From Candidatus Nanohaloarchaea archaeon (GTDB lineage: Archaea; Nanohalarchaeota; Nanosalinia; Nanosalinales; Nanosalinaceae): DNA of 64,000 nt. Below the pieces are notes generated by a model. The model saw only the letters and a list, made by a program, of their open reading frames with translations. It was not told where the DNA came from and did no database searches. The number at the start of each line of letters is the position of its first letter. Within the stretch, counting starts at the first letter, position 1. The position numbers and the translations under genes are program-made. Of this stretch, positions 2,798 through 17,534 are shown piece after piece. Location of the stretch: assembly GCA_042218075.1 (NCBI GenBank), contig JBDGRK010000018.1:1388-65387 (forward strand). Direction: 5' to 3'.

Positions 2798-2799
2798 AC

Positions 2800-3316: not shown

Positions 3317-3349
3317 TTAGCTGATCGTTTTGAAGTTGATATAGTTTTT

Positions 3350-3733: not shown

Positions 3734-3776
3734 ACTTTATACCTTCTTTCTGAATGTTTCTTAGGAATGAGCTTCC

Positions 3777-4046
3777 CTAGAAGCCATTGAATTCTTCTTT
3801 AACTGTACCCTGGACAGAGATTGAGACTCCATTCTCGAGAACTCCTATACTGTATGCCAGATCTCTTAATTTTTCCAGGTCTTGCCTGTTTTCTACTACG
3901 GCAAATACATCGACATCGCTGTGCTTTTCTTCTTCCTCTCGTGCAACGCTTCCGTAGAGAACAAGTTCTTTTATTGAATCATCCAGTTCCTTTCTCGCCT
4001 TCTCGGCAAACTTTTCAAATACTTCTCTATGTTTTGATCCTTTCAT
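3777..4046 (-). CDS. Minimal nucleotidyltransferase (MNT antitoxin partner of HEPN)
   Basis: LVLYGSVAREEEEKHSDVDVFAVV matches the GS...DxD nucleotidyltransferase motif. It lies directly upstream of the HEPN pseudogene. Confidence 0.8.
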   Translation of the reverse strand: MKGSKHREVFEKFAEKARKELDDSIKELVLYGSVAREEEEKHSDVDVFAVVENRQDLEKLRDLAYSIGVLENGVSISVQGTVKEEFNGF

Positions 4047-4201
4047 AGGTTAAGTAATATTCTAGAAATTTAAGAAAATAATTTTTCATCGAGTTCATAT
4101 AATTTCCATATCACAGGTAAACTTCATGCTTGAAGTTAAAATAGAGATATATATTTGAATAGAAATCTATGAATTTGAAACTAGGATTATCAAAGAAAAG
4201 T

Positions 4202-4214
4202 ATATCAGTGTTAT
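4202..4214. promoter_or_regulatory. Degenerate copy (ATATCAGTGTTAT) of the cassette palindrome, about 59 nt upstream of ATG 4273
   Basis: Read directly from the sequence. The following 5' leader (GATTTATTTCTTGTTCTT) matches the one upstream of 1665. Confidence 0.35.
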
Positions 4215-4272
4215 ATTTTACAGATAGAATCCTAGGCGACTGATTTATTTCTTGTTCTTCAAACGATATGTT

Positions 4273-4581
4273 ATGAATTTGAAAACAGGCGATGATGTTG
4301 CCGGACTGTTAGAGATGCAGAATGAGGACTTGCTGAGAGATCTAGTTTACTACCGGACCAGCAGCGGCTCAATATCGCCGGAATTACTGAATGTAATGCG
4401 GGAAAACGGGAAGAAACTTGAAAACGAGAAGGAAGTAGCTGAATCACTAGGGGAAAGGTCAAGAGAAAGACTTGATGATCTAAGAGAGGAGATAGGTAAT
4501 TTGAAGAAAAGTATTGAAAAGGATGCGAAGACGGTGGAGCTTGGAGGTTTGTGGAAAGTTTTGGGAATTGGGAAGTATTGA
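4273..4581 (+). CDS. Orphan antitoxin-like protein; a composite of the 1665 type (N-terminal) and the 2618 type (C-terminal)
   Basis: MNLKTGDDVAGLLEMQNEDLLRDLVYYRTSSGSISPELLNVM...LDDLREEIGNLKKSIEKDAKTVELGGLW. No toxin ORF follows it. Confidence 0.5.
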   Translation: MNLKTGDDVAGLLEMQNEDLLRDLVYYRTSSGSISPELLNVMRENGKKLENEKEVAESLGERSRERLDDLREEIGNLKKSIEKDAKTVELGGLWKVLGIGKY

Positions 4582-4734
4582 GAGATGATTTTGCTGACCG
4601 GCTGCTCGAAGAGTTTGAGAGGTAGTTCTTATGGTAAGTTCGGATCGGATTGAGATTTTCTTTGATGCGGAAGGAGTAACTGAATTAATTCCAGAGAAAG
4701 TTTTAAATATATTTTTTCCCTAATTTCTATTAAA

Positions 4735-5478
4735 ATGTCGGAGATTAAAAGGAAAAATTACAAATCGCTCTCAAAATCGGAGTACAAACTGGTAGAGTTC
4801 GTGTTAGAAAACGAGCTGAAGGTTTTTACCAGGGCCGATATGGAGAAAAACCTCGGTTTTGACACTGAAAATTGCTACAGGATTATCTCCGGCCTCAGGA
4901 AAAAAGATATGCTGGAATCTCCCATCAGAGGTTACTACGTTCTTGACATACCCAACTACAATGTCTCACTATATCAAGTGGCTACAAGGATCTACTGGCC
5001 ATCCTACATTTCTTTCTGGACCGCACTCTCATATCACAGTCTAACCGACCAGCTTCCCCGAACTGTCTATGTGGTCAATGCAGAAAATTCATCAGAGATA
5101 GAGTTCAGGGATCACAGAATAGACTTCGTCAGGTTCAAACCGGAGTACATCTTCGGATACGAAGACTCCAACGGCTTTATAGCCGACCCGGAAAAAGCCG
5201 TGATCGATTCCCTGCATCTTCCGCGCTACTCGGGAGGCATAACCGAAGTTGAAAAAGCACTTGAAAGAGATCTAAATATACAGAAACTAGAGGAATACGC
5301 CGAAAATATGGGTATATCCGCTGTAAAGAAGAGGCTTAAGTACCTGATGCAGCGAAAAGCTATAGATAACAGTCTTGAAGTCTCAGGAAGCTATGTAAAG
5401 CTCGATCCATCAAAGGGAGATGGAAAACGTATCAAAAACTGCCTTATCGAAGACAACGTCTACAAGGGTAGAGAATGA
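4735..5478 (+). CDS. AbiEi-like antitoxin / wHTH regulator (type IV TA)
   Basis: N-terminal wHTH-like segment. Its position and 4-nt overlap with the AbiEii-type gene fit the AbiE architecture. Confidence 0.6.
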   Translation: MSEIKRKNYKSLSKSEYKLVEFVLENELKVFTRADMEKNLGFDTENCYRIISGLRKKDMLESPIRGYYVLDIPNYNVSLYQVATRIYWPSYISFWTALSYHSLTDQLPRTVYVVNAENSSEIEFRDHRIDFVRFKPEYIFGYEDSNGFIADPEKAVIDSLHLPRYSGGITEVEKALERDLNIQKLEEYAENMGISAVKKRLKYLMQRKAIDNSLEVSGSYVKLDPSKGDGKRIKNCLIEDNVYKGRE

Positions 5479-6230
5479 TAACCGAGAGAAAACTGAAACA
5501 GATAGCTGACCAGAATAAAATAAATCCTTACTACCAGGAAAAAGACTACCTCCAGAACATCCTGCTGAGAGAAATATCCGGCGAAGACATGGTTTTCAAG
5601 GGAGGTACATGCCTCAAAATCTGCTACAACCTTCCCAGATTCTCCGAAGACCTGGACTTCAATACTGAAAAAGCTCCCGAGGAGATCGAAGAGATTATCA
5701 GGAACGGTGTAAAAGCATTTGGGAGGATGGGAATAGATACAGAGTTCGAAAGATCCGAGAAATTCGAACAAAATTCCTCCTACACCGCACACATCAGATT
5801 TGAAGGTCCTCTCTACAGAGGTAATCGAAGTTCGACAAACACTGTACAGGTCGACGCAGGCAAAAGAACAGGAACAATACTAGAAACAGATGTAAAACAG
5901 GTTACAAGTCCTTACCCCGATATACCATCCTACTTCCTCACCACAATACAACTAGAAGAAATACTCGCGGAAAAGATAGCAGCGATGGATGAAAGATCAA
6001 AAGGCAGAGACCTCTTCGACATCTGGTTCCTCATCGATAAAACAGGGATAAACGAAGATCTAATCGATCAGAAGACTTCAGGCAGCATTAGCGTAAGTTT
6101 TCCATCTGAGGAAGATTACAGGAGAGACCTGTCCGATCTTCTGCCCAACGTACCACCCTACGAAAAGGTAAGCAAGAGTGTAAAACAGAATCTAGAGAAA
6201 GAGGGATTAAAAGTAAATCTAAAACTCTAA
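5475..6230 (+). CDS. AbiEii/AbiGii-family nucleotidyltransferase toxin (DUF1814)
   Basis: FKGGTCLKICYNLPRFSEDLDF is the hallmark motif of this family. The C-terminal ...EKIAAMDERSKGRDLFDIWFL is also typical. Confidence 0.85.
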   Translation: MITERKLKQIADQNKINPYYQEKDYLQNILLREISGEDMVFKGGTCLKICYNLPRFSEDLDFNTEKAPEEIEEIIRNGVKAFGRMGIDTEFERSEKFEQNSSYTAHIRFEGPLYRGNRSSTNTVQVDAGKRTGTILETDVKQVTSPYPDIPSYFLTTIQLEEILAEKIAAMDERSKGRDLFDIWFLIDKTGINEDLIDQKTSGSISVSFPSEEDYRRDLSDLLPNVPPYEKVSKSVKQNLEKEGLKVNLKL

Positions 6231-6336
6231 ACACTAAAAATGAACTCCAAACTTACTCGAAAACTTTGCCGGGTTGAAGATTTCCAGAACCCGAAGGTTT
6301 CCCGGTAACGGTACATGACACCTCCAGAGCTCGTAA

Positions 6337-6423
6337 CTGACAGCGACTTCGTGAGAGAGGGTTGAAAGACCAGCCTACTCCGGTACCGTCCTAAATGTGG
6401 ATGGAATCACCTAATTCCTGAAC
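6337..6423 (+). repeat. Intergenic repeat family R1, copy E, upstream of the 698-aa gene
   Basis: CTGACAGCGACTTCGTGAGAGAGGGTTGAAAGACCAGCCTACTCCGGTACCGTCCTAAATGTGGATGGAATCAC aligns with 2224-2310. Confidence 0.6.
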
Positions 6424-6538
6424 CATAACTCACAGTCCTTCACCACAAGTGTTTGGTGATTGGAAAGATTCATGAAAAAGAACCTGAAAACCCTCTCGGA
6501 AGAATACAATTTTAAACAGTGGAGAGCTTAAAGACTGT

Positions 6539-8635
6539 ATGTGGAGCGGGTCGATGAGCGTTAGAGTCAAGACGTTACTCATCCTTCTTGGTATGACTGT
6601 ACTCTACTCTGTCTCGGTATCGGCGGAACCCCAGGTCGTGAGGCCGAACACGGAGGGAACATCGGAGATCGACGCGGACACTGTCGACGGTCAAGATGCC
6701 TCCCAGCTCGGGGGAAACCAGAACCTTTCCGAGGTTCTTGGCGAGGCGAACAAGGCAGGTACTCACGATATCAACCTGACCGGCAACGCAATTAGAGACG
6801 TCAGCGCTCTTTACGATGACTCGAATACGCAGTGCGGATCCGACGAGTTCCTCAACGGCCAGGGATCATGTACCACAGACTCTTTCGCAACCGACACCGA
6901 CAACCAGAATCTGGAGGATGTGCTCGCACAGTACAACGATGCCGGAGCCTACAACATCAACCTCTCCGGAAGCGAAATACAGGACACCGACGGAGCAATA
7001 ACCCTCGGAGGAGGAAACGTAGAAATACCCGACGGAAAACTAAAAATCTCAAACTGGAACAACGCCTCCGGACTCAACGCAACAGGAGCACCAAACGACT
7101 TCTCCAACGCAGGAGACCTCGGAAGCAGCGGAGACATAACAGATGGAAACGTGGAGAACGCAGAGCTAAACAATAATGATGTCTCAATCGCAGGAAACAC
7201 AGTCAACCTCGGAGGAAGCGTAACCTGCAGCAGCATAACAGGAAGCAGCGGACTATGCGACAGCACTGACAATGTAGACGACTCCGTAAGCGACTCCAAC
7301 CTCGAAGGAGCATTCTCAAGCAACGGATTTCTCAAAAGAACAAGCTCAAACACATACTCAACAGACAGCACCATAGACATCTCCGGAGAAACCAACCTCG
7401 GATCAGGAAACGCAATCAGCATCAGTGGAGATAACGTTGCTGTAAGTGAATCAGGAATAGGCCACGACAACATAGGAGGAGTATCCACGCATGATCACAT
7501 TAGCGAGAATGGTATAGAAGCTGATATTTTTGACACAGGCGACAACAGCCCCCAAAAAAACCTCGGGATGAACAACGATGATCTGGCAAACGCAAATAGT
7601 CTGGAAACAAACAACATCTACGACAACGACGACAACAAGATCAAGGTAAAAGACAACATCTCACTCGCTACATCAGGAGGAAGCGAAGTGAGCGAAATAC
7701 ACACGTACAACAGCGGAGAAAGCGGAGTCGACATCGGACTCCAAGGCGGAAAAAACCACATAGAATTCGAACACTACAACACACCATCAACAGACTTCCT
7801 CACAATAGACTATAATGGAGGAAGCGGAAGAATCGGCGCGGGAGCAAACCTAGACATGAACAACAACGATGTTGACGCAGCCAACCAGATCAACTTTAAC
7901 GGAGGCGCCTACATAGACGAGGGAGCGGCAAGTTACGGCAGTATCAGGGTCAGCGGTAGCTGTGATAACGGGTATTGCGGTGTCAATATCCAGGACAACG
8001 AGGACTATGTTTTCATGACAAGTGGAGACACGGTGGGTATATACGATGATAGTGATAACAACTGGGTGTGGGATAGGGATGACAGCCAGAACGTTCTCCG
8101 CGTGCATCACAATCTTGAGGTCACAGGATCAATAGATGAAACCGCTGACGTTGCCGAGGTAATGAGGCAGAAGGATAAAGAGGAAGAGATAGAGGCGGGT
8201 GATGTCGTCGCCATCAAGGAAGGCAAGGTAACCAAGAATACTACAGACTCCAGCCTGAACATGGTGGTATCAGCCAAGCCGGGTATCCGGCTTGGAGGTC
8301 AGGTAGCGCACAATATTTCGGAAGACACCAGAGAAATGCTGGAGGAGAAAAGACTTGATATTGCTTTCACAGGTAGGGTACCCGTCAAGGTTAGGGGAGA
8401 AGCGGAAAGCGGGGACTACCTCCTTCCCTCGGGAGAAAATGATGGTACGGCGGTAGCAGTTGATGAGAAAGAGATAAGCTTCCAGCAATACAGGAGGGCG
8501 ATAGGTGTTGTTCTACAGCCATTTGAAGTCCCAGAACACATGTCCAAGAATAACACAGAGGAGTATAGGGAAGTCCTCGAAGAGGCTGAGAAAAAGCCTT
8601 ACACCATCTACAATGTTGCGGTAGGAGTGAAGTGA
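6539..8635 (+). CDS. Secreted or membrane-anchored acidic surface protein with tail-fibre-like repeats and a conserved C-terminal module
   Basis: N-terminal hydrophobic signal VKTLLILLGMTVLYSVSVSA. DADTVDGQDASQL motif. Internal repeat NQNL(S/E)xVL...AG..(D/N)INL(T/S)G. C-terminus ...GRVPVKVRGEAESGDYLLPSGENDGTAVAV...IYNVAVGVK, a module I recall from the C-termini of bacterial tail-fibre-domain proteins. Confidence 0.75.
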   Translation: MWSGSMSVRVKTLLILLGMTVLYSVSVSAEPQVVRPNTEGTSEIDADTVDGQDASQLGGNQNLSEVLGEANKAGTHDINLTGNAIRDVSALYDDSNTQCGSDEFLNGQGSCTTDSFATDTDNQNLEDVLAQYNDAGAYNINLSGSEIQDTDGAITLGGGNVEIPDGKLKISNWNNASGLNATGAPNDFSNAGDLGSSGDITDGNVENAELNNNDVSIAGNTVNLGGSVTCSSITGSSGLCDSTDNVDDSVSDSNLEGAFSSNGFLKRTSSNTYSTDSTIDISGETNLGSGNAISISGDNVAVSESGIGHDNIGGVSTHDHISENGIEADIFDTGDNSPQKNLGMNNDDLANANSLETNNIYDNDDNKIKVKDNISLATSGGSEVSEIHTYNSGESGVDIGLQGGKNHIEFEHYNTPSTDFLTIDYNGGSGRIGAGANLDMNNNDVDAANQINFNGGAYIDEGAASYGSIRVSGSCDNGYCGVNIQDNEDYVFMTSGDTVGIYDDSDNNWVWDRDDSQNVLRVHHNLEVTGSIDETADVAEVMRQKDKEEEIEAGDVVAIKEGKVTKNTTDSSLNMVVSAKPGIRLGGQVAHNISEDTREMLEEKRLDIAFTGRVPVKVRGEAESGDYLLPSGENDGTAVAVDEKEISFQQYRRAIGVVLQPFEVPEHMSKNNTEEYREVLEEAEKKPYTIYNVAVGVK

Positions 8636-8674
8636 TCCACAAGAGATTTAATTCTTGGGTTAGAGATATTCTCT

Positions 8675-8836
8675 ATGTCTGAGGTTGCGGAATCTGATTA
8701 CAGCTGGCTTGTGAAGACAAGAGTAAAGGACCGTTCCCGTATCAAGAGAGCTATGGATAAGCAGGATGAGATAAGGGGTGAAACAGTTGAGGGAGATTTA
8801 AGCAGTGAGATCAGGAAGTGGCGTGACCGGAGATGA
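8675..8836 (+). CDS. 53-aa antitoxin-like protein (VapB position)
   Basis: My own translation gives MSEVAESDYSWLVKTRVKDRSRIKRAMDKQDEIRGETVEGDLSSEIRKWRDRR. Its stop overlaps the PIN gene start (ATGA). Confidence 0.5.
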   Translation: MSEVAESDYSWLVKTRVKDRSRIKRAMDKQDEIRGETVEGDLSSEIRKWRDRR

Positions 8837-9288
8837 GGATTGTTCTTGATTCTTCTGTTGTAGTAAAGTGGTTTAAGCAGGAGGAAGATAGCAATAAGGC
8901 TCTGAAGATCAGAGAGTCTTATTTCAAGGGCGATCTGGAGATTGCGATACCTGACCTTGTTTTCTACGAGATTTCAAATGTGATGAAATACGATGATGAA
9001 TTCGATGTTAATCAGATTAAAGATTCGATGGAGTCTTTAAGAGACATGGATTTTGAAGTTGTAGCTCCTTACACGGATCTTCTTGATAAAGCCATTGAAC
9101 TGGCTGAGCAGAACAGTATCACGATCTATGATGCGAGCTTTTTGGCCTTGGCCGAGCTTCTTGATGCCAGACTGGTTACAACGGATCAGGAGCTCTACAG
9201 GAAGACAGAGGAGTTGGGGAACACTAAGAAACTCGAGAGTTACGTCGAGGAGCTGGACACTGAAGAAGAGAGTCAGGAGGATGAATGA
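8833..9288 (+). CDS. vapC: PIN-domain toxin VapC
   Basis: MRIVLDSSVVVKWF...YEISNV...ITIYDASFLALAELLDARLVTTDQEL. Confidence 0.8.
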   Translation: MRIVLDSSVVVKWFKQEEDSNKALKIRESYFKGDLEIAIPDLVFYEISNVMKYDDEFDVNQIKDSMESLRDMDFEVVAPYTDLLDKAIELAEQNSITIYDASFLALAELLDARLVTTDQELYRKTEELGNTKKLESYVEELDTEEESQEDE

Positions 9289-9327
9289 CTGAGTTTTCTC
9301 TAGGTAACTTAATGTGAAACGCTGTCG

Positions 9328-9438
9328 GAAGTTCCGGTAAACTTCAACGAGCGGACATAGAAAAAGTACAGAGAACTCCTAAAGAAAGCTGAGGTTGAAG
9401 ATTGCCAGATCTACAACGTGGCGGTAGGAGTGAAGTAG
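9328..9438 (+). pseudogene. Copy 1 of the 3' end of gene 6539-8635 (degenerate)
   Basis: EVPVNFNERT*KKYRELLKKAEVEDCQIYNVAVGVK*, with an in-frame TAG. Confidence 0.75.
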
Positions 9439-9486
9439 TGTTTGGCAACAGTTATCTTTATGAGTTTGTATGAACTGTGTTTAGTT

Positions 9487-9669
9487 ATGGGAGATAAAGA
9501 AATTGCCTCTCCTGAAGACTTCGCTGACGAGGTTAAGAAGAAGTGGAGTGAAAAGGAGAGAGAGTTACGTGAGAAGGTTGAGGAAACTATTGAGCGTAGA
9601 GCAAGGGAGAGAGCTGCTGAGATACTTGATAGAGAGTCCAGAGAACTTAGAGAAGCTTCAACTGCTTAG
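9487..9669 (+). CDS. Small charged coiled-coil ORF, possibly the antitoxin of the convergent PIN gene
   Basis: MGDKEIASPEDFADEVKKKWSEKERELREKVEETIERRARERAAEILDRESRELREASTA. Its 3' end overlaps the 3' end of 9658-10140 by 12 nt. Confidence 0.3.
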   Translation: MGDKEIASPEDFADEVKKKWSEKERELREKVEETIERRARERAAEILDRESRELREASTA

Positions 9670-10140
9670 TTCTTCCGGAGATTTTATCTCTATTTCTGTC
9701 AACTCTTGTTCTTTCAGGAACTTATTAAGCTCTTTCTGCCGGTTCAAGAGATGCTTTTTGTCGAAGGTGATCAAGTGGCCCAGTTTCAATCCGCTGACAT
9801 AAAGGACTAGGTTCAGGTCTGATTCATTCATATTTTCTAGTCGATCCATTCCTTCTTCGATTATTTCTGATACAAGTTTGCCGGTTTCTGACTCGATCGA
9901 GTTTTCGAGTTCTCTCACATCTATAAGTTCCTTCGAATGCTTGAACTGGAACTCAGCTATTCTCGTCGCCAGATCACCGTGTTTCCATTCGTGAATTTGT
10001 TGAAATAGGAGTAGAGGAATGTGAAGTTCAATTTCTCCGTTCTCGATTTTCTTTAATACCTCTTCGGCATGCTCTTTCCTGTCGTCTTGCTTATCCCAGA
10101 GAGCTATCGTGAAAACGTCTATATCCACGACTGCTTTCAT
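9658..10140 (-). CDS. PIN-like domain protein
   Basis: From ATG 10140: MKAVVDIDVFTIALWDKQDD...HIPLLLFQQIHEW...LVLYVSGLKLGHLITFDKKHL. The acidic pattern and the C-terminal TFDK motif are PIN-like. Confidence 0.55.
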   Translation of the reverse strand: MKAVVDIDVFTIALWDKQDDRKEHAEEVLKKIENGEIELHIPLLLFQQIHEWKHGDLATRIAEFQFKHSKELIDVRELENSIESETGKLVSEIIEEGMDRLENMNESDLNLVLYVSGLKLGHLITFDKKHLLNRQKELNKFLKEQELTEIEIKSPEELSS

Positions 10141-10215
10141 AGAAAAAATCGCGGATTTATATTTAATTAGTTTGACTGAAATTCGATTTGACAATTTAAA
10201 AGAAGAAAGCATCAC

Positions 10216-10371
10216 TTTCGACTAGTACAGAAAGCGATTGGAGTAGTACTGGAAGAGTTCGAAGTCACTGGAAACGTGAACGAGAAGACAGCCATGAAGT
10301 ACAGACAACTGATGGAAGAAGCAGAAGATGAAAACTACAGTATATACAACGTAGCAGTCGGAGTGAAGTAG
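10216..10371 (+). pseudogene. Copy 2 of the 3' end of gene 6539-8635 (open frame, no start)
   Basis: FRLVQKAIGVVLEEFEVTGNVNEKTAMKYRQLMEEAEDENYSIYNVAVGVK*. Confidence 0.8.
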
Positions 10372-10403
10372 TTTTTATATAGTTTCTCTGATAATAGAAC
10401 TTT

Positions 10404-10565
10404 ATGCCCGAGACAATTAAGAGCGGTGAGAAGGATTTGGACGAACTTGAGGAGGAGTTTAGAGAGTCTTTGAAAGATGCCGCTGAGGGTAGAATTTCCA
10501 ATGATGTGGATGCTATTCGAGAACGGATCGAGCGTAAGCGAGAGCGTTCTGAATGCGACCGGTAA
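10404..10565 (+). CDS. 53-aa antitoxin-like protein, convergent with its putative toxin
   Basis: My own translation gives MPETIKSGEKDLDELEEEFRESLKDAAEGRISNDVDAIRERIERKRERSECDR. It is a homolog of the 11603-11752 product (...AIRERIRK). It overlaps 10513-10869 by 53 nt tail to tail. Confidence 0.45.
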   Translation: MPETIKSGEKDLDELEEEFRESLKDAAEGRISNDVDAIRERIERKRERSECDR

Positions 10566-10869
10566 GCTTCTTTGAGTCCTTCTTCGTCATTACTTTAAGG
10601 GCATATATTTTACCGTCTTCCAGTGTTTCAAGATATTCTCCTTCTAGAAACCAGGCTCTGAAGTCTCTGCCTAGGTTCATCTGGAGAAAAGGATGCATAT
10701 TACCCGACATTCTCTTGTTGAACGTTTGCTGGGGTGAAGCGTTTAGTTCGAGGTTTCTATCAGCTGCTGTAGCTTTGCTAAAGAAAGTTTCCTCAACCTT
10801 TGGAGGCAATTCAACCAGATCGTTTTCTGCTGTCTCTGTTATCTCTATATGTTTGAGTTTATCAACCAT
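10513..10869 (-). CDS. RelE/ParE-superfamily-like toxin (paralog of 11233-11628)
   Basis: ...HIEITETAENDLVELPPKVEETFF...MSGNMHPFLQMNLGRDFRAWFLEGEY...IYALKVMTKKD. ATG 10869 is preferred over the ORF-track TTG at 10917, by alignment to the paralog. Confidence 0.5.
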   Translation of the reverse strand: MVDKLKHIEITETAENDLVELPPKVEETFFSKATAADRNLELNASPQQTFNKRMSGNMHPFLQMNLGRDFRAWFLEGEYLETLEDGKIYALKVMTKKDSKKLTGRIQNALAYARSVLE

Positions 10870-10920
10870 GTACTCTGGTTTACCGTCTCGAAATATAAAT
10901 TCTAGTTTGAGAGTCAAAAG

Positions 10921-11192
10921 TTTTCACTGTTCACGTTTCGGTCAAAGTTAGAGGAGCCGCTTCCGAAGGAGATTATCTACTGCCTTCAGGAGAGAATGAT
11001 GGTACAGCAGTGGCTGTTCCGGAAAACGAGATCAGCTTCCAACAGTACAGAAACGCGATCAGAGTTGTGCTCGAAAAGTTCGAGATCCCGGAAAACGTGA
11101 ACAACAAGACAGCCAGGAAGTACACACAACTGATGGAAGAAGCGGAAGATGAAGACTACAGCATCTACAACGTGGCGGTAGGTGTGAAGTAA
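10921..11192 (+). pseudogene. Copy 3 of the 3' end of gene 6539-8635 (longest copy, about 90 codons, frame intact)
   Basis: FSLFTFRVKVRGAASEGDYLLPSGENDGTAVAVPENEISFQQYRNAIRVVLEKFEIPENVNNKTARKYTQLMEEAEDEDYSIYNVAVGVK*. Confidence 0.85.
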
Positions 11193-11232
11193 GAGAGAAA
11201 TAGTTATTAACCGGTTTGAGATTAATTTTTCT

Positions 11233-11628
11233 ATGGAAATTGTAGTAACTGAGAACGCAGTTAGAGATATTGCCGAACTTCCTGGCGAAGTTGAAGATAC
11301 TTTTTTCAGTGCGAAAAAGACGGCTGAGAAGAACCTAAATTTAGGTGCATCTCCTGATCAGGCACTGGAGAAGTATCTTTCCGGTGGTATGCATCCGATT
11401 CTTCAGGAAACTTTAGGAGCTGATTACAGGGCCTGGTTTATAGAGGGAGGTAGGGCAAATAAAATGCTTGGAAGAAATGAATTTGATGAAGACAAACTTT
11501 ACTGTTTCCGTGTCTTGACCGCTAAAGAGGCTCACAAGATAGAAGATGGCTCTAGGAACGCTCGCGCAATTCTTCAATTCGAAAATCACAGATTTTCTTC
11601 TCTTAGAAACTGCTACGCAGTTTCCTAA
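11233..11628 (+). CDS. RelE/ParE-superfamily-like toxin
   Basis: MEIVVTENAVRDIAELPGEVEDTFF...LSGGMHPILQETLGADYRAWFIEG...LYCFRVLTAKEAHK. Confidence 0.5.
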   Translation: MEIVVTENAVRDIAELPGEVEDTFFSAKKTAEKNLNLGASPDQALEKYLSGGMHPILQETLGADYRAWFIEGGRANKMLGRNEFDEDKLYCFRVLTAKEAHKIEDGSRNARAILQFENHRFSSLRNCYAVS

Positions 11629-11752
11629 TCCGCTCTCGGATAGCGGACTCTTTGCTGTAAACTTCGCTCTCTGCAGCCTGTTTGATTGATTCCTCTGTTC
11701 TCTCAATCAACTTTTTCAGGCTTAAATTTCGTTTTTCTATAGCTTCAGTCAT
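11603..11752 (-). CDS. 49-aa antitoxin-like protein, convergent with 11233-11628
   Basis: My own translation gives MTEAIEKRNLSLKKLIERTEESIKQAAESEVYSKESAIRERIRKLRSSF. There is a 26-nt tail-to-tail overlap with the toxin. Confidence 0.45.
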   Translation of the reverse strand: MTEAIEKRNLSLKKLIERTEESIKQAAESEVYSKESAIRERIRKLRSSF

Positions 11753-11811
11753 ATTTGTTAAGGATCGACTCAGTCTTTTAACCTTTACTCTTTCCTATTT
11801 AGGGATGTTAC

Positions 11812-12052
11812 AGGGCGATCGCCTTCACCGGTCAGGTTCCTGTGAAGGTGAGAGGTGACGCGGATGCCGGAGACTACCTCATGCCAAGCGGAAGGAATGA
11901 TGGAACTGCTATAGCGGTCAGTGAGGAAAACATAACCTTCGACCAGTACAGGGATGCAATCGAAGTGGTCCTGCAAGAATTCGAGAGACCTGATGGAGAA
12001 GGCCGAAAACAAAGATTACAGCATCTAAAATGTAGCAGTAGGAGTGAATTAG
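11812..12052 (+). pseudogene. Copy 4 of the 3' end of gene 6539-8635 (internal deletion/frameshift plus TAA)
   Basis: AIAFTGQVPVKVRGDADAGDYLMPSGRNDGTAIAVSEENITFDQYRDAIEVVLQEFERP. After a frameshift it continues LMEKAENKDYSI*NVAVGVN*. Confidence 0.8.
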
Positions 12053-12526
12053 TTACTGTCTCTCTTCCAGTTTCCGTATTGCCTGTTCTAGTATTTGGTC
12101 TGTTGTGAAAAGCGCTGATTCTTTCTGCAGCTGCCGCATTTTTTCGACTGCTTTCTCTAGAGTTAGTTTTCCTTTCTGCTGGTTGATCGCTATTATACCT
12201 ATTGATCCGTGTGTTTCAATTCCGAGTTCTCTGGATTTCTGTCTTGCTTCGAGGTCGTCGGTGATGAAGATAGCTTCCTCCTTTTTTGCTGTTTCCAGTG
12301 CGGTTGATTCTCCGGGATCGAGATTGTACTTATTTTGATCTGCATTCTTCTTCTGGTAGTTCATCTCTTCGAGGTCTTGAGGTATCTTGTATTCGGCTAG
12401 TTCGTCCAGAACGGTTTCAGTTATGAGAACTTCTTCGAATATTTCGAGCAGGTGTAGAGAATTTATCTGGTTTAGATGTATGATAGGTCCTGTGTCTAGG
12501 GCAGCTTGCTTTAGGCTGTCGCCCAT
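12053..12526 (-). CDS. DUF3368-type PIN-like toxin
   Basis: LDTGPIIHLNQI...DPGESTALETAKKEEAIFITDDLEARQKSRELGIETHGSIGII is the pattern of COG2405/DUF3368 proteins. Confidence 0.7.
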   Translation of the reverse strand: MGDSLKQAALDTGPIIHLNQINSLHLLEIFEEVLITETVLDELAEYKIPQDLEEMNYQKKNADQNKYNLDPGESTALETAKKEEAIFITDDLEARQKSRELGIETHGSIGIIAINQQKGKLTLEKAVEKMRQLQKESALFTTDQILEQAIRKLEERQ

Positions 12527-12756
12527 TCTATATCTTCCTCTACTGCTTCAACTTCCTTCTCCGCTCTCCTTATTTTTCCAGCGCCCAGTAGCTCCACTGC
12601 CTTTTCTCTGCTTACCTCGTCTTTCAGGTACTTGTCCAGAATATTTTTTTCCCAGAGCTGTTTCACGCCTTCTTCCAGTGCTTTCTCCATTACCTCTGAT
12701 TCTGTGATCCCGCGTTCGTGTGCTAGTTCACTTATCTGTTCTGTCAGGCCCGACAT
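12511..12756 (-). CDS. UPF0175-family antitoxin
   Basis: It lies upstream of, and overlaps, the DUF3368 gene. ...LDKYLKDEVSREKAVELLGAGKI resembles the UPF0175 core. Confidence 0.6.
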   Translation of the reverse strand: MSGLTEQISELAHERGITESEVMEKALEEGVKQLWEKNILDKYLKDEVSREKAVELLGAGKIRRAEKEVEAVEEDIEWATA

Positions 12757-12805
12757 ATTATTATCTTGTCTTTGAATTAATTTAAGCCTTGTTATTTGCG
12801 GAAAT

Positions 12806-13013
12806 TATCTATTACCTGGTGAGGAGATGGTCTGTTGTGGCAGAAAGCAAAGATCGGTTTCGGTGACTACCATAGAGCGATCGGAGTTGTGCCTGAAAAG
12901 GTGAAATTCTTGGAAACGTAAAAGAGAAGACAGCGGAGAAATAGAGGCAACTCCCTGAAGAAGCGAAGGACAAGCCCTACAAGATCTACAACGTGGTGGT
13001 AGGAGTGAAGTAG
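12806..13013 (+). pseudogene. Copy 5 of the 3' end of gene 6539-8635 (multiple frameshifts and stops)
   Basis: Nucleotide alignment by eye to 8415-8635. It ends ...KDKPYKIYNVVVGVK* and is followed by AGAGATTTAA, as the parent gene is. Confidence 0.7.
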
Positions 13014-13042
13014 CCAAAGAGATTTAACCCTGCGGGTTAAGA

Positions 13043-13315
13043 TTGAGGATGTGGTCTGTCATGACTGTTGATACTGCTGATGCCGTTGATTCAGCTATAA
13101 GGAAGGATCTGAATGAAGGCGAGTACATGCTGGAGAGATTCAGGAAGAGGTTGGAAGAGTTTGAGGAAGAATATGATATGAGTTCAGAGGAGTTTATGGA
13201 GAAGTTTGAATCCGGAGAGCTTGGTGATGATGAAGACTTCTTTGAGTGGTATGCTGTATATGAGAGCATGAAGTACTGGGAGGAGAAGACAGGTAAACTC
13301 ATGGAAGCCTTATGA
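13043..13315 (+). CDS. Antitoxin-like acidic protein (start probably ATG 13049 or 13061)
   Basis: ...RFRKRLEEFEEEYDMSSEEFMEKFESGELGDDEDFFEWYAVYESMKYWEE is a motif I recall from small archaeal TA-partner proteins. It overlaps the next ORF by ATGA. Confidence 0.45.
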   Translation: MRMWSVMTVDTADAVDSAIRKDLNEGEYMLERFRKRLEEFEEEYDMSSEEFMEKFESGELGDDEDFFEWYAVYESMKYWEEKTGKLMEAL

Positions 13316-13467
13316 TCCGAGGCTATTTCGCAGATAGGAAGCAGGAAATTCTGGATAACCCTTCTAAAGTTGATCTATCTTTTGATTCAACTGCCACAGA
13401 TGAAGACAGAGGCTTCTGGAAAGCCAGAATTACTTTCAGAGATGGTTCTAGACTTCACCTTTTTTAA
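13312..13467 (+). pseudogene. Truncated toxin-like ORF (51 codons), cut off at the junction with copy 6
   Basis: MIRGYFADRKQEILDNPSKVDLSFDSTATDEDRGFWKARITFRDGSRLHLF*. It resembles the N-terminus of DUF6516/TumE-type proteins, and that assignment is from memory only. Confidence 0.3.
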
Positions 13468-13491
13468 TTTTTACTAATCAATGAGAGTCTT

Positions 13492-13665
13492 GAAGTAGAT
13501 AAGTACAGCTTCGACCAGTACAGGCAAGCAATCGGAGCGGTCCTGCAAGAATTCGAGAGACCTGAAAACCTGAACGATAAGACAGCAAGAGAATAAAGGG
13601 AACTGCTTGAAGATGCAGAATATGAAGACTACCAAATTTACAATGTAGCAGTCGGAGCGAAATAA
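13492..13665 (+). pseudogene. Copy 6 of the 3' end of gene 6539-8635 (in-frame TAA)
   Basis: EVDKYSFDQYRQAIGAVLQEFERPENLNDKTARE*RELLEDAEYEDYQIYNVAVGAK*. Confidence 0.8.
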
Positions 13666-13706
13666 GCTTGTTCCACATGTAAACAATAAGAATTTTAAAG
13701 TTTGGT

Positions 13707-14234
13707 TTGTATACATTTGTCATGGATGAAGTGGTTCCGGATACTAACACTTTGATTTACTTGGCCAAGTCGGGGATGCTACCCATACTGGACAGATACG
13801 AAGTATATATTACCAGAGAAGTTTTTGATGAAGCTGTTAAGAGCGGGAAGAAAGAAGATAAATCGGACGCTTTCCTGCTTGAGAGACATATAGAAGAGAA
13901 CTGGAATAATGAGAAAGTTGATAAGGAAAAATTGGAAGAAGAGTTAGACTATTTCGGGGCTAGAGGAGAGACAAGTGTATACATGCTGGCAGATAAAAAA
14001 GATATTCCAGCTTTGACATCAGATAAAGTAGCTAGAAATAAAATGAGGAAAAAACAGGTTGATGTAATAAGGACAGACATGTTACTGTTGAAACAATTCC
14101 GCAATAATCAACTGGAAAAGTCCGAGTTGAGAGAAAAGCTTAACAGACTAAACTCAGTAAATGGAACAACAGGTCAGAGGATTAATTTCCTGATGAAAAA
14201 AGCTGAAGAACATGCAAGAGGTGAAGAAGAATGA
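13707..14234 (+). CDS. PIN-like (DUF3368-related) toxin
   Basis: VVPDTNTLIYLAKSGMLPILD...FGARGETSVYMLADKKDIPALTSDKVARNKMRKKQVDVIRT is similar in layout to 44771-45286. Confidence 0.55.
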   Translation: MYTFVMDEVVPDTNTLIYLAKSGMLPILDRYEVYITREVFDEAVKSGKKEDKSDAFLLERHIEENWNNEKVDKEKLEEELDYFGARGETSVYMLADKKDIPALTSDKVARNKMRKKQVDVIRTDMLLLKQFRNNQLEKSELREKLNRLNSVNGTTGQRINFLMKKAEEHARGEEE

Positions 14235-14539
14235 CTAAAGCTGTATCAACAAGAATATCGGAAGAAACAGTCGAAAAACTGGATGAAATAGCAGAAGAAG
14301 AACACCTAGACAGAGCTACACTGCTTAGGAAAATGCTGGAAGAGGATGTAGAAGAATACCTGAAAAGAAAAGCTGCAGAATCATATAGCAGAGGCGAGAA
14401 AAGTATAGAGGCTGCGGCAGCTCGGGCCGACGTTTCGGTATGGCAGATGATTCAATACACACAGAAACATAACATTGAATCGCCGTCAGATGATGTCGAA
14501 GGACTTGAACAAGAATATCGAGAATCCGAGGAAGTATGA
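14231..14539 (+). CDS. RHH/UPF0175-like antitoxin (here downstream of its toxin)
   Basis: TRISEETVEKLDEIAEEEHLDRATLLRKMLEE (RHH-like) plus ...SIEAAAARADVSVWQMIQY. It is a paralog of 44464-44778. Confidence 0.6.
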   Translation: MTKAVSTRISEETVEKLDEIAEEEHLDRATLLRKMLEEDVEEYLKRKAAESYSRGEKSIEAAAARADVSVWQMIQYTQKHNIESPSDDVEGLEQEYRESEEV

Positions 14540-14563
14540 GATCTACAGCTAGGAATGAAGTAG
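14540..14563 (+). pseudogene. Copy 7: a 24-nt stub of the 3' end of gene 6539-8635
   Basis: GATCTACAGCTAGGAATGAAGTAG compares with ATCTACAA(C/T)GT(G/T)GCGGTAGGAGTGAAGT(A/G)(G/A). It is followed by AGAGATTTAAACCGGG as in copies 0 and 5. Confidence 0.5.
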
Positions 14564-14595
14564 AGATTTAAACCGGGAACGACAATTTTGAATCA

Positions 14596-15135
14596 ATGAA
14601 GAAAGCAGTTTTCCTGACATCAGTTCTTTTCCTGGTGACTTTCGTGTCCGGATACCAGATAGACTCCACCAGTGATAATCTTGGTCATGAGTTCAATATC
14701 GATGGAGAAAACAATAAGACAATAGTCTATGGTGATGGGACAGCGAGGTACGGAAGAGTGCCGATGAACATCGAAGTGGAGAATGGATCTGGATTCGAGG
14801 TCTGTGCATCAGGCGGAAAACAGGAATACTCCTTCCGGCTGAAGTCGAACGGTACCGTGCTTGAATCGGGATGGAGCGAGAGCTCATGCAGGTCCTGGAA
14901 TCTGAACCACAGCTTCATGGGCGATAAGATGCACGTCCTCGTATGGTCGAGGAACAGCGACAGCAACTACACCCACAGCTCAGCCACGAGAAGCGACTCC
15001 TTCCTTCAGCTGAGGTACGAGAACGTGACAGTGGTGGAAGCGGAGGACAATCGGAGAGAAAGATCGGAAACCGGAGATCAAGGAAATAAAGGATTTCTGG
15101 CTGAACTCTTCAGGGCTATCTCAAATCTTCTTTGA
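14596..15135 (+). CDS. Secreted hypothetical protein
   Basis: N-terminal signal MKKAVFLTSVLFLVTFVSG. No motif recognised. A 50-nt fragment of this gene recurs inverted at about 22121-22161. Confidence 0.6.
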   Translation: MKKAVFLTSVLFLVTFVSGYQIDSTSDNLGHEFNIDGENNKTIVYGDGTARYGRVPMNIEVENGSGFEVCASGGKQEYSFRLKSNGTVLESGWSESSCRSWNLNHSFMGDKMHVLVWSRNSDSNYTHSSATRSDSFLQLRYENVTVVEAEDNRRERSETGDQGNKGFLAELFRAISNLL

Positions 15136-15181
15136 GAAAATCATTAAAACACAGGAGATAAAAACTAACTATTGGTCGCAA

Positions 15182-15478
15182 ATGGACGAGGAAAAGATCG
15201 AAGAGTTAGTTGAGCAGGAGGTTGAGGAAGTCATAGAGGAGAAGACTAATGATGCAGTAGAAACTCAAGGGAAGGGTCTTGAGAGAATAATAGAGGAGAA
15301 GATTGAAGAGAAGTATCGTAAAGCAGGAGGAAGCTTGGTAAACCTGGATGAAAAAAAGATATCGAGGCGGGGATTTCTGAAAGCTCTCGGTCTGGGAACG
15401 GGCGGTCTGGCTCTTTCATCAATAGCGTCAAGTGCAAGCCTACTGTCTGGAACCACTATAAATGGCAACACTGCATGA
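15182..15478 (+). CDS. Acidic leader plus twin-arginine (Tat) signal; the 5' part of a gene split from 15509-16270 by an in-frame TGA
   Basis: ...KKISRRGFLKALGLGTGGLALSSIASSASLL is a Tat-type signal. It is in the same reading frame as 15509-16270. Confidence 0.5.
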   Translation: MDEEKIEELVEQEVEEVIEEKTNDAVETQGKGLERIIEEKIEEKYRKAGGSLVNLDEKKISRRGFLKALGLGTGGLALSSIASSASLLSGTTINGNTA

Positions 15479-15508
15479 CATACAGGAAACGACGGCTCCG
15501 GTTCAGGC

Positions 15509-16270
15509 TTGAATGCCGACCAGCTTGACGGACATGATTTGAGCGTGGGAAGTTCCAGGCCTAGCTCGCCCTCCTCAAGCCACCTCTTCTTCGACACAGA
15601 TAGTTCGGTGGTGGAATATTACAATAGAAGCAGCTGGGTCACTATTATTTCTAGTAAGGTTACTGCTGGGCTCATATCCTGGTACAAATTAGAATCTGGG
15701 AGCGGAAGCACGGCTACAGATAGTTATGGAAGTAATAATGGTTCAATAAATGGAGCTTCATGGACATCAGGGAAGGTTGGAGATTACGCCTTAAGTTTCG
15801 ATGGAAATGTGAATGCGGGTAATAATGCCTGGGGATTCAGTAATGATGATGCCTTTACCTTTGCGGCATGGGTATACTTTGACGGAAATGATGGACATGT
15901 CGTCTCAATTACTAATGAACGTGCCACTATGAGTATAGGTACGCTCAGTGTCAATTCCGGTCAGCTAGGATGTCGAATGGACGACGGTAGTAACGGTTCT
16001 GCGGTAAGTTCCGGCACTTCATTCCCGACAAGTTCATGGACACATGCAGCCGTCACTTTTGACGGATTAACCGTACGTGTATACCAGGACGCAAGTGAGA
16101 AGAATAGCGGTAGCGATAGCTACGCCACAGTCAGCGCCGACTCCGGATTTGGAGCCGATCCTCACAGCCCTAACCGTTCTATATCGGCAGATATTGACGA
16201 TGTTCGAGTCTACAATCGAGCACTAAGTTCGGGCGAGATAGACACAATTTATAACCGCTATTCCTTTTGA
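15509..16270 (+). CDS. LamG / concanavalin-A-like lectin domain protein (3' part of the split gene)
   Basis: NADQLDGHD motif, then ...LISWYKLESGSGSTATDSYGSNNGSINGASWTSGKVGDYALSFDG...FTFAAWVY...DDVRVYNRALSSGEI, which is typical of Laminin_G_3 domains. Confidence 0.7.
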   Translation: MNADQLDGHDLSVGSSRPSSPSSSHLFFDTDSSVVEYYNRSSWVTIISSKVTAGLISWYKLESGSGSTATDSYGSNNGSINGASWTSGKVGDYALSFDGNVNAGNNAWGFSNDDAFTFAAWVYFDGNDGHVVSITNERATMSIGTLSVNSGQLGCRMDDGSNGSAVSSGTSFPTSSWTHAAVTFDGLTVRVYQDASEKNSGSDSYATVSADSGFGADPHSPNRSISADIDDVRVYNRALSSGEIDTIYNRYSF

Positions 16271-16303
16271 TTCATCTCCCTGACCCGTAAAGCGAGCCCT
16301 TTT

Positions 16304-16729
16304 ATGTTGAGCTGGAGATCTTTTTTAATATCAGTCACGGAAAGCTGCGGAGCACTAAAAGTAGAACCGCTAAAGAAGTTCGTTGAAGACCACAACTATG
16401 ATACATTAATCACCGGTATTAGGGGAAGCGACATGATAGCACAGGAAAACGGAGAAACAGAGATAGAACTTATTGAACAGAAAAAAGAACCAGCAAAATA
16501 CACAAGAGTAAACCCACTGAAAAACTGGGATGAAGCCAACGTCTGGGCATACCTCAAAGCAGAAACAGTATCATACCCGGAACTCTACGACCAGGGATAC
16601 AGGCACACCGACTCCAAATGCTGCACATCCAAAGAAGATCGGGAAGGAGCACAGGAATACGGAGAAGGCGGAATAGATGCGGAAAAACAGGCAGCCAAGG
16701 AAGATCTCCAGGACATGGGATATGTGTGA
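16304..16729 (+). CDS. PAPS-reductase-family protein lacking the N-terminal PP-loop part (probably a 5'-truncated remnant)
   Basis: CGALKVEPLKKFV...TRVNPLKNWDEANVWAYLKAETVSYPELYDQGYRHTDSKCCT matches the C-terminal half of PAPS/APS reductase-like proteins. There is a stop just upstream and a TTG start. Confidence 0.55.
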   Translation: MLSWRSFLISVTESCGALKVEPLKKFVEDHNYDTLITGIRGSDMIAQENGETEIELIEQKKEPAKYTRVNPLKNWDEANVWAYLKAETVSYPELYDQGYRHTDSKCCTSKEDREGAQEYGEGGIDAEKQAAKEDLQDMGYV

Positions 16730-16781
16730 TCTTTTCAGGATGTAAGGAAAAGAATACCAGATCTAAATGCAGTGATGTAAC

Positions 16782-17090
16782 TCAGTAGAATCTTTTGAGT
16801 CTTACAACTGTTGCTTCCAGATCTCCCTTACTCATATTTTTGACTACCTGTTCGATCGCAGAAACTATTTCATCCGGGTTTCTGTGATGCATTCTGGGGT
16901 CGAAAAGTATTCCAAAATGATTTTTACCATCTCTGTGTTTATTTTCAAAGTCCCAGTCCCTAGTTAGAATGGGCGCTTCCTTATTTTCCGAGAGTTCGAT
17001 TATTCCTTCGTCTGTTTCGGATATTTCAGGTCTTAGAGTCTCTATCCCAAGCTCTTTTTGAATTTTTTCTCCGATTACAGGATTTACCAT
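16782..17090 (-). CDS. DUF5615-like (PIN-like) toxin
   Basis: ...DEGIIELSENKEAPILTRDWDFEN...HFGILFDPR...PDEIVSAIEQVV. It lies downstream of a DUF433 gene. Confidence 0.55.
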   Translation of the reverse strand: MVNPVIGEKIQKELGIETLRPEISETDEGIIELSENKEAPILTRDWDFENKHRDGKNHFGILFDPRMHHRNPDEIVSAIEQVVKNMSKGDLEATVVRLKRFY

Positions 17091-17126
17091 TTCATCGCAG
17101 ATGATTGTAGAGATGTTCAGAAAGTA

Positions 17127-17402
17127 TCACGCTGCGGCTGAGCGGCTCTGTCTCTCAACTATCTGTTTCGTTAGTTCCGATGTTGCCTGTTGTCTTATCT
17201 CATCAGGATGTAACCGAGCGTATCTTATCGCCTGTCTTACTGCTTCTCTATCCAGTGCTTCGTACTTTTCAGCTATCTCTTCAACAGTCTCGCCGTTTAA
17301 TACATTCATCTCATATACCTGGATGACCGAGATACGCGAATTTTTAATCCTCGGGTTCTCTCTCAATTTCTCATCAAATCTAAGTTTGTCTATAGCTGAC
17401 AT
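17127..17402 (-). CDS. DUF433-family antitoxin
   Basis: RISVIQVYEMNVLNGETVEEIAEKYEALDREAVRQAIRYA is the characteristic DUF433 core. Confidence 0.7.
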   Translation of the reverse strand: MSAIDKLRFDEKLRENPRIKNSRISVIQVYEMNVLNGETVEEIAEKYEALDREAVRQAIRYARLHPDEIRQQATSELTKQIVERQSRSAAA

Positions 17403-17467
17403 ATTACCACATATACCAATTCATGGCTGAATCTAATTAATCTTTCGTTTACAGATAGCACTTCAAG

Positions 17468-17534
17468 GGAAGATGGAGTCGATGAAGAAAAACAGGCAGC
17501 CAAGGAAGAACTACAAGACATGGGATACGTATAA
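17468..17534 (+). pseudogene. Duplicate of the last ~20 codons of gene 16304-16729
   Basis: GRWSRXEEKQAAKEELQDMGYV* matches ...GGIDAEKQAAKEDLQDMGYV*. There is about 48 nt of near-identity, plus similar post-stop bases. Confidence 0.7.

Follow-up and report, generated by a model that had tools for sequence, protein, structure and literature searches.

Copies of a fibre-like gene's 3' end, alternating with two-gene cassettes in a nanohaloarchaeon: probable scars of serial end displacement

What history leaves a gene followed by seven partial copies of its own end? The question is raised by a 64,000-nt stretch of a Candidatus Nanohaloarchaea archaeon genome (assembly GCA_042218075.1, contig JBDGRK010000018.1, positions 1,388 to 65,387), the whole of which we call the window. 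It contains a gene for a 698-residue, fibre-like secreted protein, behind which, in the same orientation, lie seven partial copies of the final 8-90 codons of that gene. Each of these reaches its own stop codon, and precisely one two-gene cassette occupies each interval between adjacent copies. Several of these cassettes are of the toxin-antitoxin (TA) type. We consider, at a probability of about 0.62, that the array is a stack of scars left by serial displacement of the 3' end of the gene, together with accretion of the cassettes. The features of the array are as follows, where c0 is the resident end and c1 to c7 are the copies, numbered away from the gene.

6539..8635, + strand: resident gene, 698 aa, with a signal-peptide-like N-terminus, a fibre-like body and a conserved C-terminal domain
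8120..8632, + strand: the C-terminal domain, about 170 aa (GSIDETADVAEVM...VAVGVK)
8363..8635, + strand: c0, the terminal module of the resident gene, 90 codons and stop (AFTGRVPVKV...IYNVAVGVK, then the stop codon)
8636..8674, + strand: spacer after the resident stop, holding AGAGATTTAA at 8642-8651
8675..9288, + strand: cassette 1, a 53-aa open reading frame (ORF) and a 151-aa VapC PIN toxin (PIN, 1.1e-16) with a stop/start overlap
9328..9438, + strand: c1, relic holding the final ~36 codons, interrupted by one in-frame stop
9442..10215, both strands: cassette 2, a 75-aa ORF (+) convergent with a 160-185-aa ORF (-)
10216..10371, + strand: c2, relic holding the final ~52 codons, damaged by a stop and a frameshift; of the c3 allele type (82% to c3)
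10404..10917, both strands: cassette 3, a 53-aa ORF (+) convergent with and overlapping a 134-aa ORF (-)
10921..11192, + strand: c3, full-length relic of 90 codons, open, starting at the Phe codon of (I)AFTG
11233..11752, both strands: cassette 4, a 131-aa ORF (+) convergent with a 49-aa ORF (-)
~11815..12052, + strand: c4, relic from (I)AFTG that has lost 41 nt internally and contains a stop; of the c6 allele type
12053..12756, - strand: cassette 5, an 81-aa RHH-like ORF, then a 157-aa DUF3368 / PDC-S70 PIN-like ORF
~12797..13013, + strand: c5, relic in advanced decay, reaching from about codon 15 to the stop, with several lesions
13014..13043, + strand: c5 spacer, 30 nt, containing AGAGATTTAA
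13043..13467, + strand: cassette 6, a 90-aa TumA-like antitoxin (3e-10) and a 51-aa ORF
13492..13665 (maybe from 13474), + strand: c6, relic holding the final ~55 codons, interrupted by one stop
13707..14539, + strand: cassette 7, a 170-175-aa DUF3368 / PDC-S70 ORF and a 102-aa RHH / UPF0175-like ORF
14540..14563, + strand: c7, a 24-nt stub (GATCTACA..GCTAGGAATGAAGTAG) with an internal deletion, running into AGAGATTTAA
14596..15135, + strand: gene for a 179-aa secreted-type protein

The limits of the copies were set from an alignment and from three-frame translations, and pairwise homologies were taken from a sensitive self-comparison. A repeat finder identified seven in-register copies of the last 78 nt of the gene, the resident one included, ending at 8634, 9437, 10370, 11191, 12051, 13012 and 13664. 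The terminal 29-mer occurs four times with up to 3 mismatches, against 0 expected from 100 shuffles, and seven times with up to 8 mismatches; every occurrence is on the + strand, and the rest of the window has none. When the last 90 residues were used as a tblastn query, all copies except the stub were recovered, with E values from 2e-35 to 1e-5. Measured from stop to stop, the units are 803, 933, 821, 860, 961, 652 and 898 nt long. Lesions are present in six of the seven copies, and c3 alone is open; c4 carries a public annotation, as the 86-aa ORF P0031. An initial annotation, made from the letters of the sequence, had described seven same-strand copies of the 3' end with one cassette per interval, at least four of them with in-frame stops or frameshifts. 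The repeat finder, the 29-mer scan and tblastn agree on the former, and the three-frame translations bear out the latter.

The array is no assembly artefact. The source is a metagenome-assembled genome (MAG) and the locus lies in a variable island, which would suit the idea that strain variants of one locus had been concatenated, and such a collapse had been named at the outset as something that would undo the finding. However, three contigs in Logan, assembled by a different pipeline from two further runs (SRR28304479 and SRR36249263), are 100% identical to the window at 7082-14997 (7916 nt), 9337-12296 (2960 nt) and 14416-15346. The first two run across all the junctions they span and the third crosses the c7 junction. 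By inspection, no two copies share an exact match longer than 20 nt, and repeats of that length would not tangle a de Bruijn graph at the usual k. We reject an artefact because the independent contigs are identical and the exact matches so short, and we regard its chance as negligible.

The divergence of the copies carries the main argument. Pairwise identities between copies are only 55-75%, with the last 30 nt best conserved (77-97%). Over all in-frame stretches, the differences fall on codon positions 1/2/3 as follows.

c0 and c3: 21/14/56
c4 and c0: 13/10/36
c4 and c3: 14/11/38
c0 and c6: 15/10/34
c2 and c3: 6/3/14

Third positions are near saturation, on a par with the comparison of c0 with a GC-richer sister lineage (20/11/51). 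Because the differences concentrate at third positions, the copies are former functional alleles from deeply diverged lineages, shaped by purifying selection, and no decayed local duplicates, and because the lesions are few relative to the divergence, their inactivation was recent. On this codon-position evidence, divergence must have taken place in separate lineages, while the copies still served as working gene ends, and their silencing must be recent. The conservation of the last 30 nt likewise acts at the level of the protein, since the third codon positions are the variable sites. Two of the copies, c1 and c5, have flatter codon-position spectra and look older than the others. The suggestion made originally that the copies are displaced alleles thus gains support from the third-position bias, as does its observation that c2 and c3 are of one allele type, at 82% to each other.

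The spacers and cassettes indicate how the units are composed. The element AGAGATTTAA had been reported after copies 0, 5 and 7, and it is indeed found there (8642-8651, 13018-13027 and 14562-14571), 23-29 nt upstream of the ATG codons at 8675, 13049 and 14596, at 23-28 nt for the first of them and 24-29 nt for the last. It is TATA-like and may be a promoter-like element. About 27 nt past the stop are common to c0 and c5, and the spacer at 8636..8674 is homologous to 13014-13043 and in part to 14562-14576. Behind c0, c2, c3, c5, c6 and c7, the next + strand start follows the stop at about 30-55 nt, where the choice of start codon matters for two cassettes, and what looks like a TATA element precedes it. 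Originally, the fibre gene was probably followed by the gene at 14596..15135, and the oldest layout would have been gene, stop, AGAGATTTAA and gene 14596. As a separate observation, a 58-nt inverted repeat of 79% identity links 14726-14783, inside gene 14596, to 22104-22161, 7 kb away.

A module and the cassette to its right seem to form a native pair, which would make the junction between that cassette and the next relic the scar. This pairing is suggested because the spacing from stop to start is regular, because allele types match cassette families and because base composition tracks the downstream cassette. Each of the two clearest pairs of similar alleles precedes a single cassette family: c2 and c3 precede cassettes 3 and 4, and c4 and c6 precede the DUF3368 cassettes, a match for which we roughly estimate p ~0.01. 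The G+C (GC) content of the modules correlates with that of the downstream cassette at r = 0.74 (p = 0.06, suggestive only), compared to r = 0.26 for the upstream cassette.

The 5' limits of the relics are scattered, at about module codons 0, 0, 15, 35, 36, 54 and 82. The two longest, c3 and c4, start no more than about 9 nt apart, at (I)AFTG, and only TTCAC is common to the starts of c0, c3 and c4. An intact orphan module of 91 codons occurs in a very AT-rich, distant lineage (contig L015, ENA ERZ23498356, 579 nt, at 113-388); it begins at the same A-F-I-G codon as c3 and c4, 21 nt past the stop of an unrelated gene. (I)AFTG could therefore be a fixed crossover point, the shorter relics having been trimmed by later deletions, and such trimming would explain the seemingly truncated toxin beside c6. 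That toxin is the 51-aa ORF of cassette 6, described initially as cut off at a junction (13312-13467). The ORF does end just before c6, by a few to about 25 nt given the uncertain start of c6; it is presumably a cut-off TumE-type toxin, although it has no family match. We also looked at the 7-mer GAGAGTC to the left of c3 and c6 as a shared motif, and rejected it, its frequency being at about the level of chance.

The cassettes themselves are varied. TA families are supported for four of the seven (1, 5, 6 and 7). The initial annotation had held every cassette to be TA-like; this stands for these four, while cassette 2 (called PIN) and cassettes 3 and 4 (called RelE-like) gave no family match in Pfam, NCBIfam, PADLOC or PDB sequences. 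The AlphaFold (AF2) model of the 131-aa protein of cassette 4 has a pLDDT of 49.7, a quality insufficient for a fold search. The two partners of cassette 3 are homologous to those of cassette 4 (44% and 41% aa identity), but these cassettes are mutually inverted, and cassettes 5 and 7 are distant relatives that differ in gene order; the rest are unrelated to one another. All cassette proteins are singletons at 90% identity, with NCBI accessions from the same MAG as the resident gene. We note that cassettes 2, 3 and 4 are convergent pairs, of a small ORF against one of 131-185 aa, with overlapping 3' ends, an arrangement that is unusual for type II TA systems.

We propose the following history for the array. 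At each event, a foreign unit of about 0.65-0.96 kb would have entered the fibre gene at the boundary between its body and whatever end it then had. Such a unit would comprise a diverged functional allele of up to the last 90 codons, a stop codon, a promoter-like spacer of about 30-40 nt and one two-gene cassette. The gene would remain intact with its new end, and the old end, with everything behind it, would be pushed downstream, silenced and left to decay; new units would thus be added next to the gene. TA addiction would then act as a one-way ratchet: recombination between flanking copies would delete an antitoxin, and for this reason units would persist and only such units would be seen. 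Serial insertion of units with replacement 3' ends had been put forward in the initial annotation, and this part is supported by the third-position bias and by the one-to-one pairing of copies and cassettes. Its further proposal, of mini-cassettes integrating at an attachment site, is unsupported, neither a core nor hairpins having emerged from the scans described below, and decayed larger elements or homologous recombination through circles fit equally well. Three candidates may be considered for the joining reaction: integrative elements, or mini-elements mobilised in trans, that used a site where the module begins and were since reduced to their TA genes; insertion of circles by a single crossover, the route suggested for Rhs tips; and homology-facilitated illegitimate recombination. 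Simple homologous recombination between the present sequences is unlikely, because the copies are strongly diverged.

A second locus in the window has the same layout.

16304..16729, + strand: resident PAPS-reductase-like gene (Pfam, 3e-18)
16782..17402, - strand: cassette of DUF433 (17127-17402), then DUF5615 (16782-17090), at 2e-10 and 4.7e-6
~17466..17534, + strand: displaced end, the last ~22 codons and own stop of the gene at 16304-16729

The displaced end here has 83% nucleotide identity to the resident end, with differences of 1/3/8 by codon position and a 22-nt block identical to it. The displacement process would thus also have struck elsewhere, in one further gene at least. To judge from this sequence comparison, the second locus argues both against a site that belongs to the fibre module, since a PAPS-reductase-like gene shows the same layout, and against a store of alternative tips.

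What the repeated part does in the resident protein bears on the same question. The protein is identical (100%) to NCBI ABEJ56_03455, from a 'Candidatus Nanohaloarchaea archaeon' MAG, where it is encoded on a contig of 114 kb. By inspection, its N-terminus (MSVRVKTLLILLGMTVLYSVSVSA followed by EP) looks signal-peptide-like, and its fibre-like body is rich in Asp, Asn, Ser and Gly. A Pfam search of the 698-aa protein gave no match. The last 189 residues have three metagenome relatives from the Joint Genome Institute (JGI), at about 70% aa identity, with unrelated N-terminal parts, one of which is YadA-head-like. An exhaustive profile search found the C-terminal domain in 2461 proteins, a subset of which also ends in ...VAVGVK. 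The AF2 model of the domain has a pLDDT of 71.6, and its best PDB match is the C-terminal fragment of phi29 gp12 (3gqh_A; probability 0.99, E 5e-3, TM 0.42-0.48), which we take to be an autochaperone that drives trimer assembly and is then cleaved off in phi29. Against the viral library BFVD the model matches tail-fibre and preneck-appendage proteins (E 1e-5 to 1e-3), and PHROG 34132 matches the domain at 1e-10. The domain thus combines a gp12-like fold with a position at the C-terminus of a fibre-like protein. We conclude with moderate confidence, on the basis of these models, that the resident gene is tail-fibre-like and that the repeated 90 codons, c0, which form the distal half of the C-terminal domain, belong to an assembly domain and form no contact or receptor tip. 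A toxin domain was sought in the terminal module and was not found.

Searches for a mechanism and for related arrays covered the window and several sequence collections. The absence of a visible recombinase, remarked on from the start, agrees with the 20 ORFs of 200-620 aa tested across the window, and no reverse transcriptase was found among the ORFs tested. A diversity-generating retroelement was considered and rejected: mismatches fall on all four bases according to composition, with no adenine bias, and identity is only 55-75%. Rfam gave no match in window 1-17000. An exact-protein look-up of the resident gene and of the LamG protein found nothing, and a scan of genome contigs gave only distant bacterial homologues of the C-terminal domain. 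A metagenome scan for related arrays returned one short sister contig; scans of viral contigs and tblastn against phage and plasmid collections gave no relatives; and no extra module copies were found in the sister or bacterial loci examined.

Several observations weigh against the displacement history. Among the 20 ORFs there is no Phage_integrase-type match, and a sliding third-position scan of 7-11 aligned modules, with a maximum majority score of 0.73, revealed no patch that could be a DNA-level core; loss of an integrase or core through later deletion would be compatible with both. Identities of 55-75% are too low for ordinary homologous recombination between the present copies. Decay does not rise steadily with distance from the gene. 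Three of the seven cassettes have no TA family support. Co-inheritance of module and cassette is weakened by the inversion of the homologous cassettes 3 and 4 relative to their modules and by the reordering of 5 and 7, and c0 and c5, the closest pair by spacer, precede unrelated cassettes. The boundaries can also be read otherwise: the (I)AFTG start could equally be a conservation horizon, with the upstream linker varying between lineages, and the 3' limit could in part be one too, for five copies lose similarity exactly at the stop codon, where coding constraint ends, and the intergenic DNA varies between lineages. Finally, all available copies of the array are identical, with no array variation in the Logan data, we found no close relative in which the array is shorter or otherwise different, and no insertion event has been seen directly.

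Other explanations account for parts of the array. Capture by an integron-like system, or one resembling integrative mobile elements exploiting Xer recombination (IMEX), would have a recombinase encoded in trans act on a fixed site near the stop, with the repeat as the recombination site; the mini-cassettes, either lacking a promoter or bringing one, would enter singly. Small uniform cassettes with one repeat apiece and the good conservation of the last 30 nt would suit this, and TA cassettes in either orientation are typical of chromosomal integrons. However, that conservation is at the protein level, third positions varying freely, and the repeats are homologous to as much as 270 nt of coding sequence with variable 5' limits. 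Folding of single-stranded DNA in search of attC-like hairpins (seven copies for the + strand, five for the - strand) gave z scores of -1.8 to +1.7 against shuffled controls and no shared structure, so that neither strand shows hairpin potential. No recombinase lies beside the array or among the 20 ORFs: the upstream neighbours of the array gene are AbiEi/AbiEii, and there is no IntI beside the first cassette. The second locus has a wholly different repeat, and the link between allele type and cassette family favours a module with its downstream cassette over a cassette with the repeat that follows it. We consider integron-like capture improbable. A functional store of alternative C-terminal ends, of the pilS type or the orphan type of Rhs and contact-dependent inhibition (CDI) loci, would serve to vary a cell-contact protein. 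It would explain why all copies share one orientation and lack a promoter and 5' end, and why c3 and the distant orphan module on L015 are intact; third-position bias would also be expected if silent copies were occasionally used and selected. The initial annotation had offered this as its second reading, which is not supported: stops, frameshifts or deletions break six of the seven copies, the repeated part lies in what the models suggest is a gp12 autochaperone-like assembly domain and no receptor tip, and 55-75% identity without identical flanks offers little substrate for gene conversion. The same layout is found at an unrelated gene of cytoplasmic type, the PAPS-reductase-like one, where variation makes no sense. 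A store therefore seems very unlikely.

Local tandem duplication, either of the gene end or of gene plus cassette units, followed by neutral decay in place and involving no foreign DNA, has in its favour that tandem direct repeats are its usual product and that the TA island upstream in the window has duplicated and chimeric cassettes. Whole cassette-plus-repeat units that were homologous to one another would have pointed to it, as recognised beforehand, but the cassettes between copies are unrelated, save 3 and 4 and distantly 5 and 7. Neutral decay moreover predicts an even spread over codon positions, in contrast to the 21/14/56 and similar counts observed, and a relic that had decayed to third-position saturation could not have stayed open over 90 codons like c3. 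A long neutral history of the relics is excluded because change would then be equal at all positions and c3 could not be open, and to duplication we attach scarcely any probability. The displacement history accommodates the third-position bias and the pairing of modules with cassettes, and we return to it below.

The wider setting is also rich in cassettes. A variable island occupies the first 17.5 kb of the window, with TA cassettes, the fibre gene, the array, secreted and LamG proteins and the PAPS-reductase-like gene; five TA-type cassettes, AbiEi/AbiEii included, lie at 1.6-6.2 kb, upstream of the fibre gene. In three sister contigs (L005, L006 and L007), TA cassettes are again found downstream of the homologous gene, and the points at which one contig has a cassette that another lacks coincide with short direct repeats (10-67 nt). 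Compared to L005 and L006, L007 has a 5.3-kb insert (1056-6460) about 45 nt past the stop of the homologous gene, flanked by the 10-nt repeat GAGCCGGATA and encoding an RCC1-repeat protein, a DUF5667 protein and a 197-aa protein. A 67-nt repeat precedes each of two VapBC cassettes, X and Y (L005 4719-4785; L006 6260-6326 and 7126-7192; L007 8655-8721). One contig has X, another Y and the third X and Y in tandem, and the repeat in L005 is of the Y type but is joined to X; this pattern suggests recombination at the 67-nt repeat. A DUF433 cassette in the sister contigs is flanked by an imperfect repeat of about 20 nt.

Some further features of the window may be recorded here. The TA island at 1200-6540 comprises two PIN pairs, an MNT-type nucleotidyltransferase and AbiEi/AbiEii. 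The palindrome TATAACAGTGTTATAT precedes four of its cassettes, and a chimeric antitoxin remnant at 4252-4581 is assembled from the first two antitoxins of the island. About 100 nt of the intergenic DNA in front of the fibre gene (6335-6431) recur as relic copies at 2222-2317 and 1311-1350; these could represent a mirror-image accretion on the 5' side. At 1-1115, in our reading on the - strand, an AAA_14/DUF4143-like ATPase gene runs off the start of the window; in L005 and L007, a gene with AAA_14/DUF4143 Pfam matches lies downstream of the homologous fibre-like gene. LAGLIDADG_3-like stretches occur in the ORFs at 36043-37032 (2e-6) and 58119-59174 (8e-3, under the Pfam cut-off), of which the latter also has a TrmB-type helix-turn-helix (HTH). 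Both lie in low-GC patches, adjoining tRNA-Val (35944-36013) and tRNA-Met (59316-59390) respectively.

If the displacement history is correct, the array is a layered record of horizontal transfer into a DPANN episymbiont, preserving seven successive foreign alleles and the selfish modules that accompanied them. It would extend the logic of C-terminal displacement to archaea, to TA cargo and to an assembly-chaperone domain, and TA addiction would turn a recombination hot spot into a one-way ratchet within a very small genome. A bolder extension, which we hold only tentatively and think rather unlikely, is that the units belong to an undescribed class of sub-kilobase mobile TA cassettes that carry a functional 3' end of their target, insert by exchanging it for the resident one, have no recombinase of their own and use several target genes. 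Such mobile cassettes may occur in Nanohaloarchaea and perhaps in other DPANN archaea, as the orphan module on L015 might indicate. They would amount to an archaeal accretion system like integrons or Rhs loci, in which a piece of coding sequence serves as the attachment site and selection on the host protein maintains its function. The layout itself suggests a search rule: a gene, a small cassette and then the end of the gene again, truncated on its 5' side and with a stop codon of its own.

How does the array compare with known systems? Chromosomal integrons resemble it in having uniform small cassettes, one per repeat, many of them TA cassettes in either orientation, with addiction opposing deletion; their TA cassettes stabilise the array. 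They differ in that no IntI, attI or attC structure was found here and that the repeats are coding relics of the neighbouring gene. In streptococci, cis-mobilisable elements (CIMEs) lacking an integrase accrete tandemly with integrative and conjugative elements (ICEs) at the 3' end of fda. There, as here, elements pile up at the 3' end of one gene and some have no recombinase, being flanked by att repeats; those systems, however, have short identical att cores, a resident ICE integrase and kilobase-long elements, and no serial replacement of the end. A nearer likeness is offered by Rhs loci, where laterally acquired C-terminal ends, inserted sequentially, shunt the incumbent end downstream, and where circular intermediates have been proposed (Jackson et al., 2009; PMC2935791). 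As in Rhs and CDI loci, we find an intact gene followed by 5'-truncated 3' regions on the same strand, each with a small gene set. The Rhs core fragment is identical within a locus, whereas here the module is conserved as protein and 25-45% diverged in DNA. Rhs units pair a toxin tip with one immunity gene; here there is no toxin domain, the module is assembly-chaperone-like, and the payload lies past the stop codon as independent two-gene cassettes. The host is also a DPANN archaeon, and a non-surface gene has the same layout. The other likeness is to prophage e14 at icd, where integration leaves a displaced 163-bp icd' end (PMC6379469, PMC13626634). In e14 and phage 21, as in our array, a diverged end borne by the element keeps the gene intact and the old end survives as a distal pseudogene. 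These are single 15-kb prophages with an integrase and a defined core, in contrast to seven tandem units of less than 1 kb that contain two-gene cassettes only, for which no integrase or core was found. The closest known models for the array are Rhs C-terminal displacement and the integration of e14 and phage 21 into icd.

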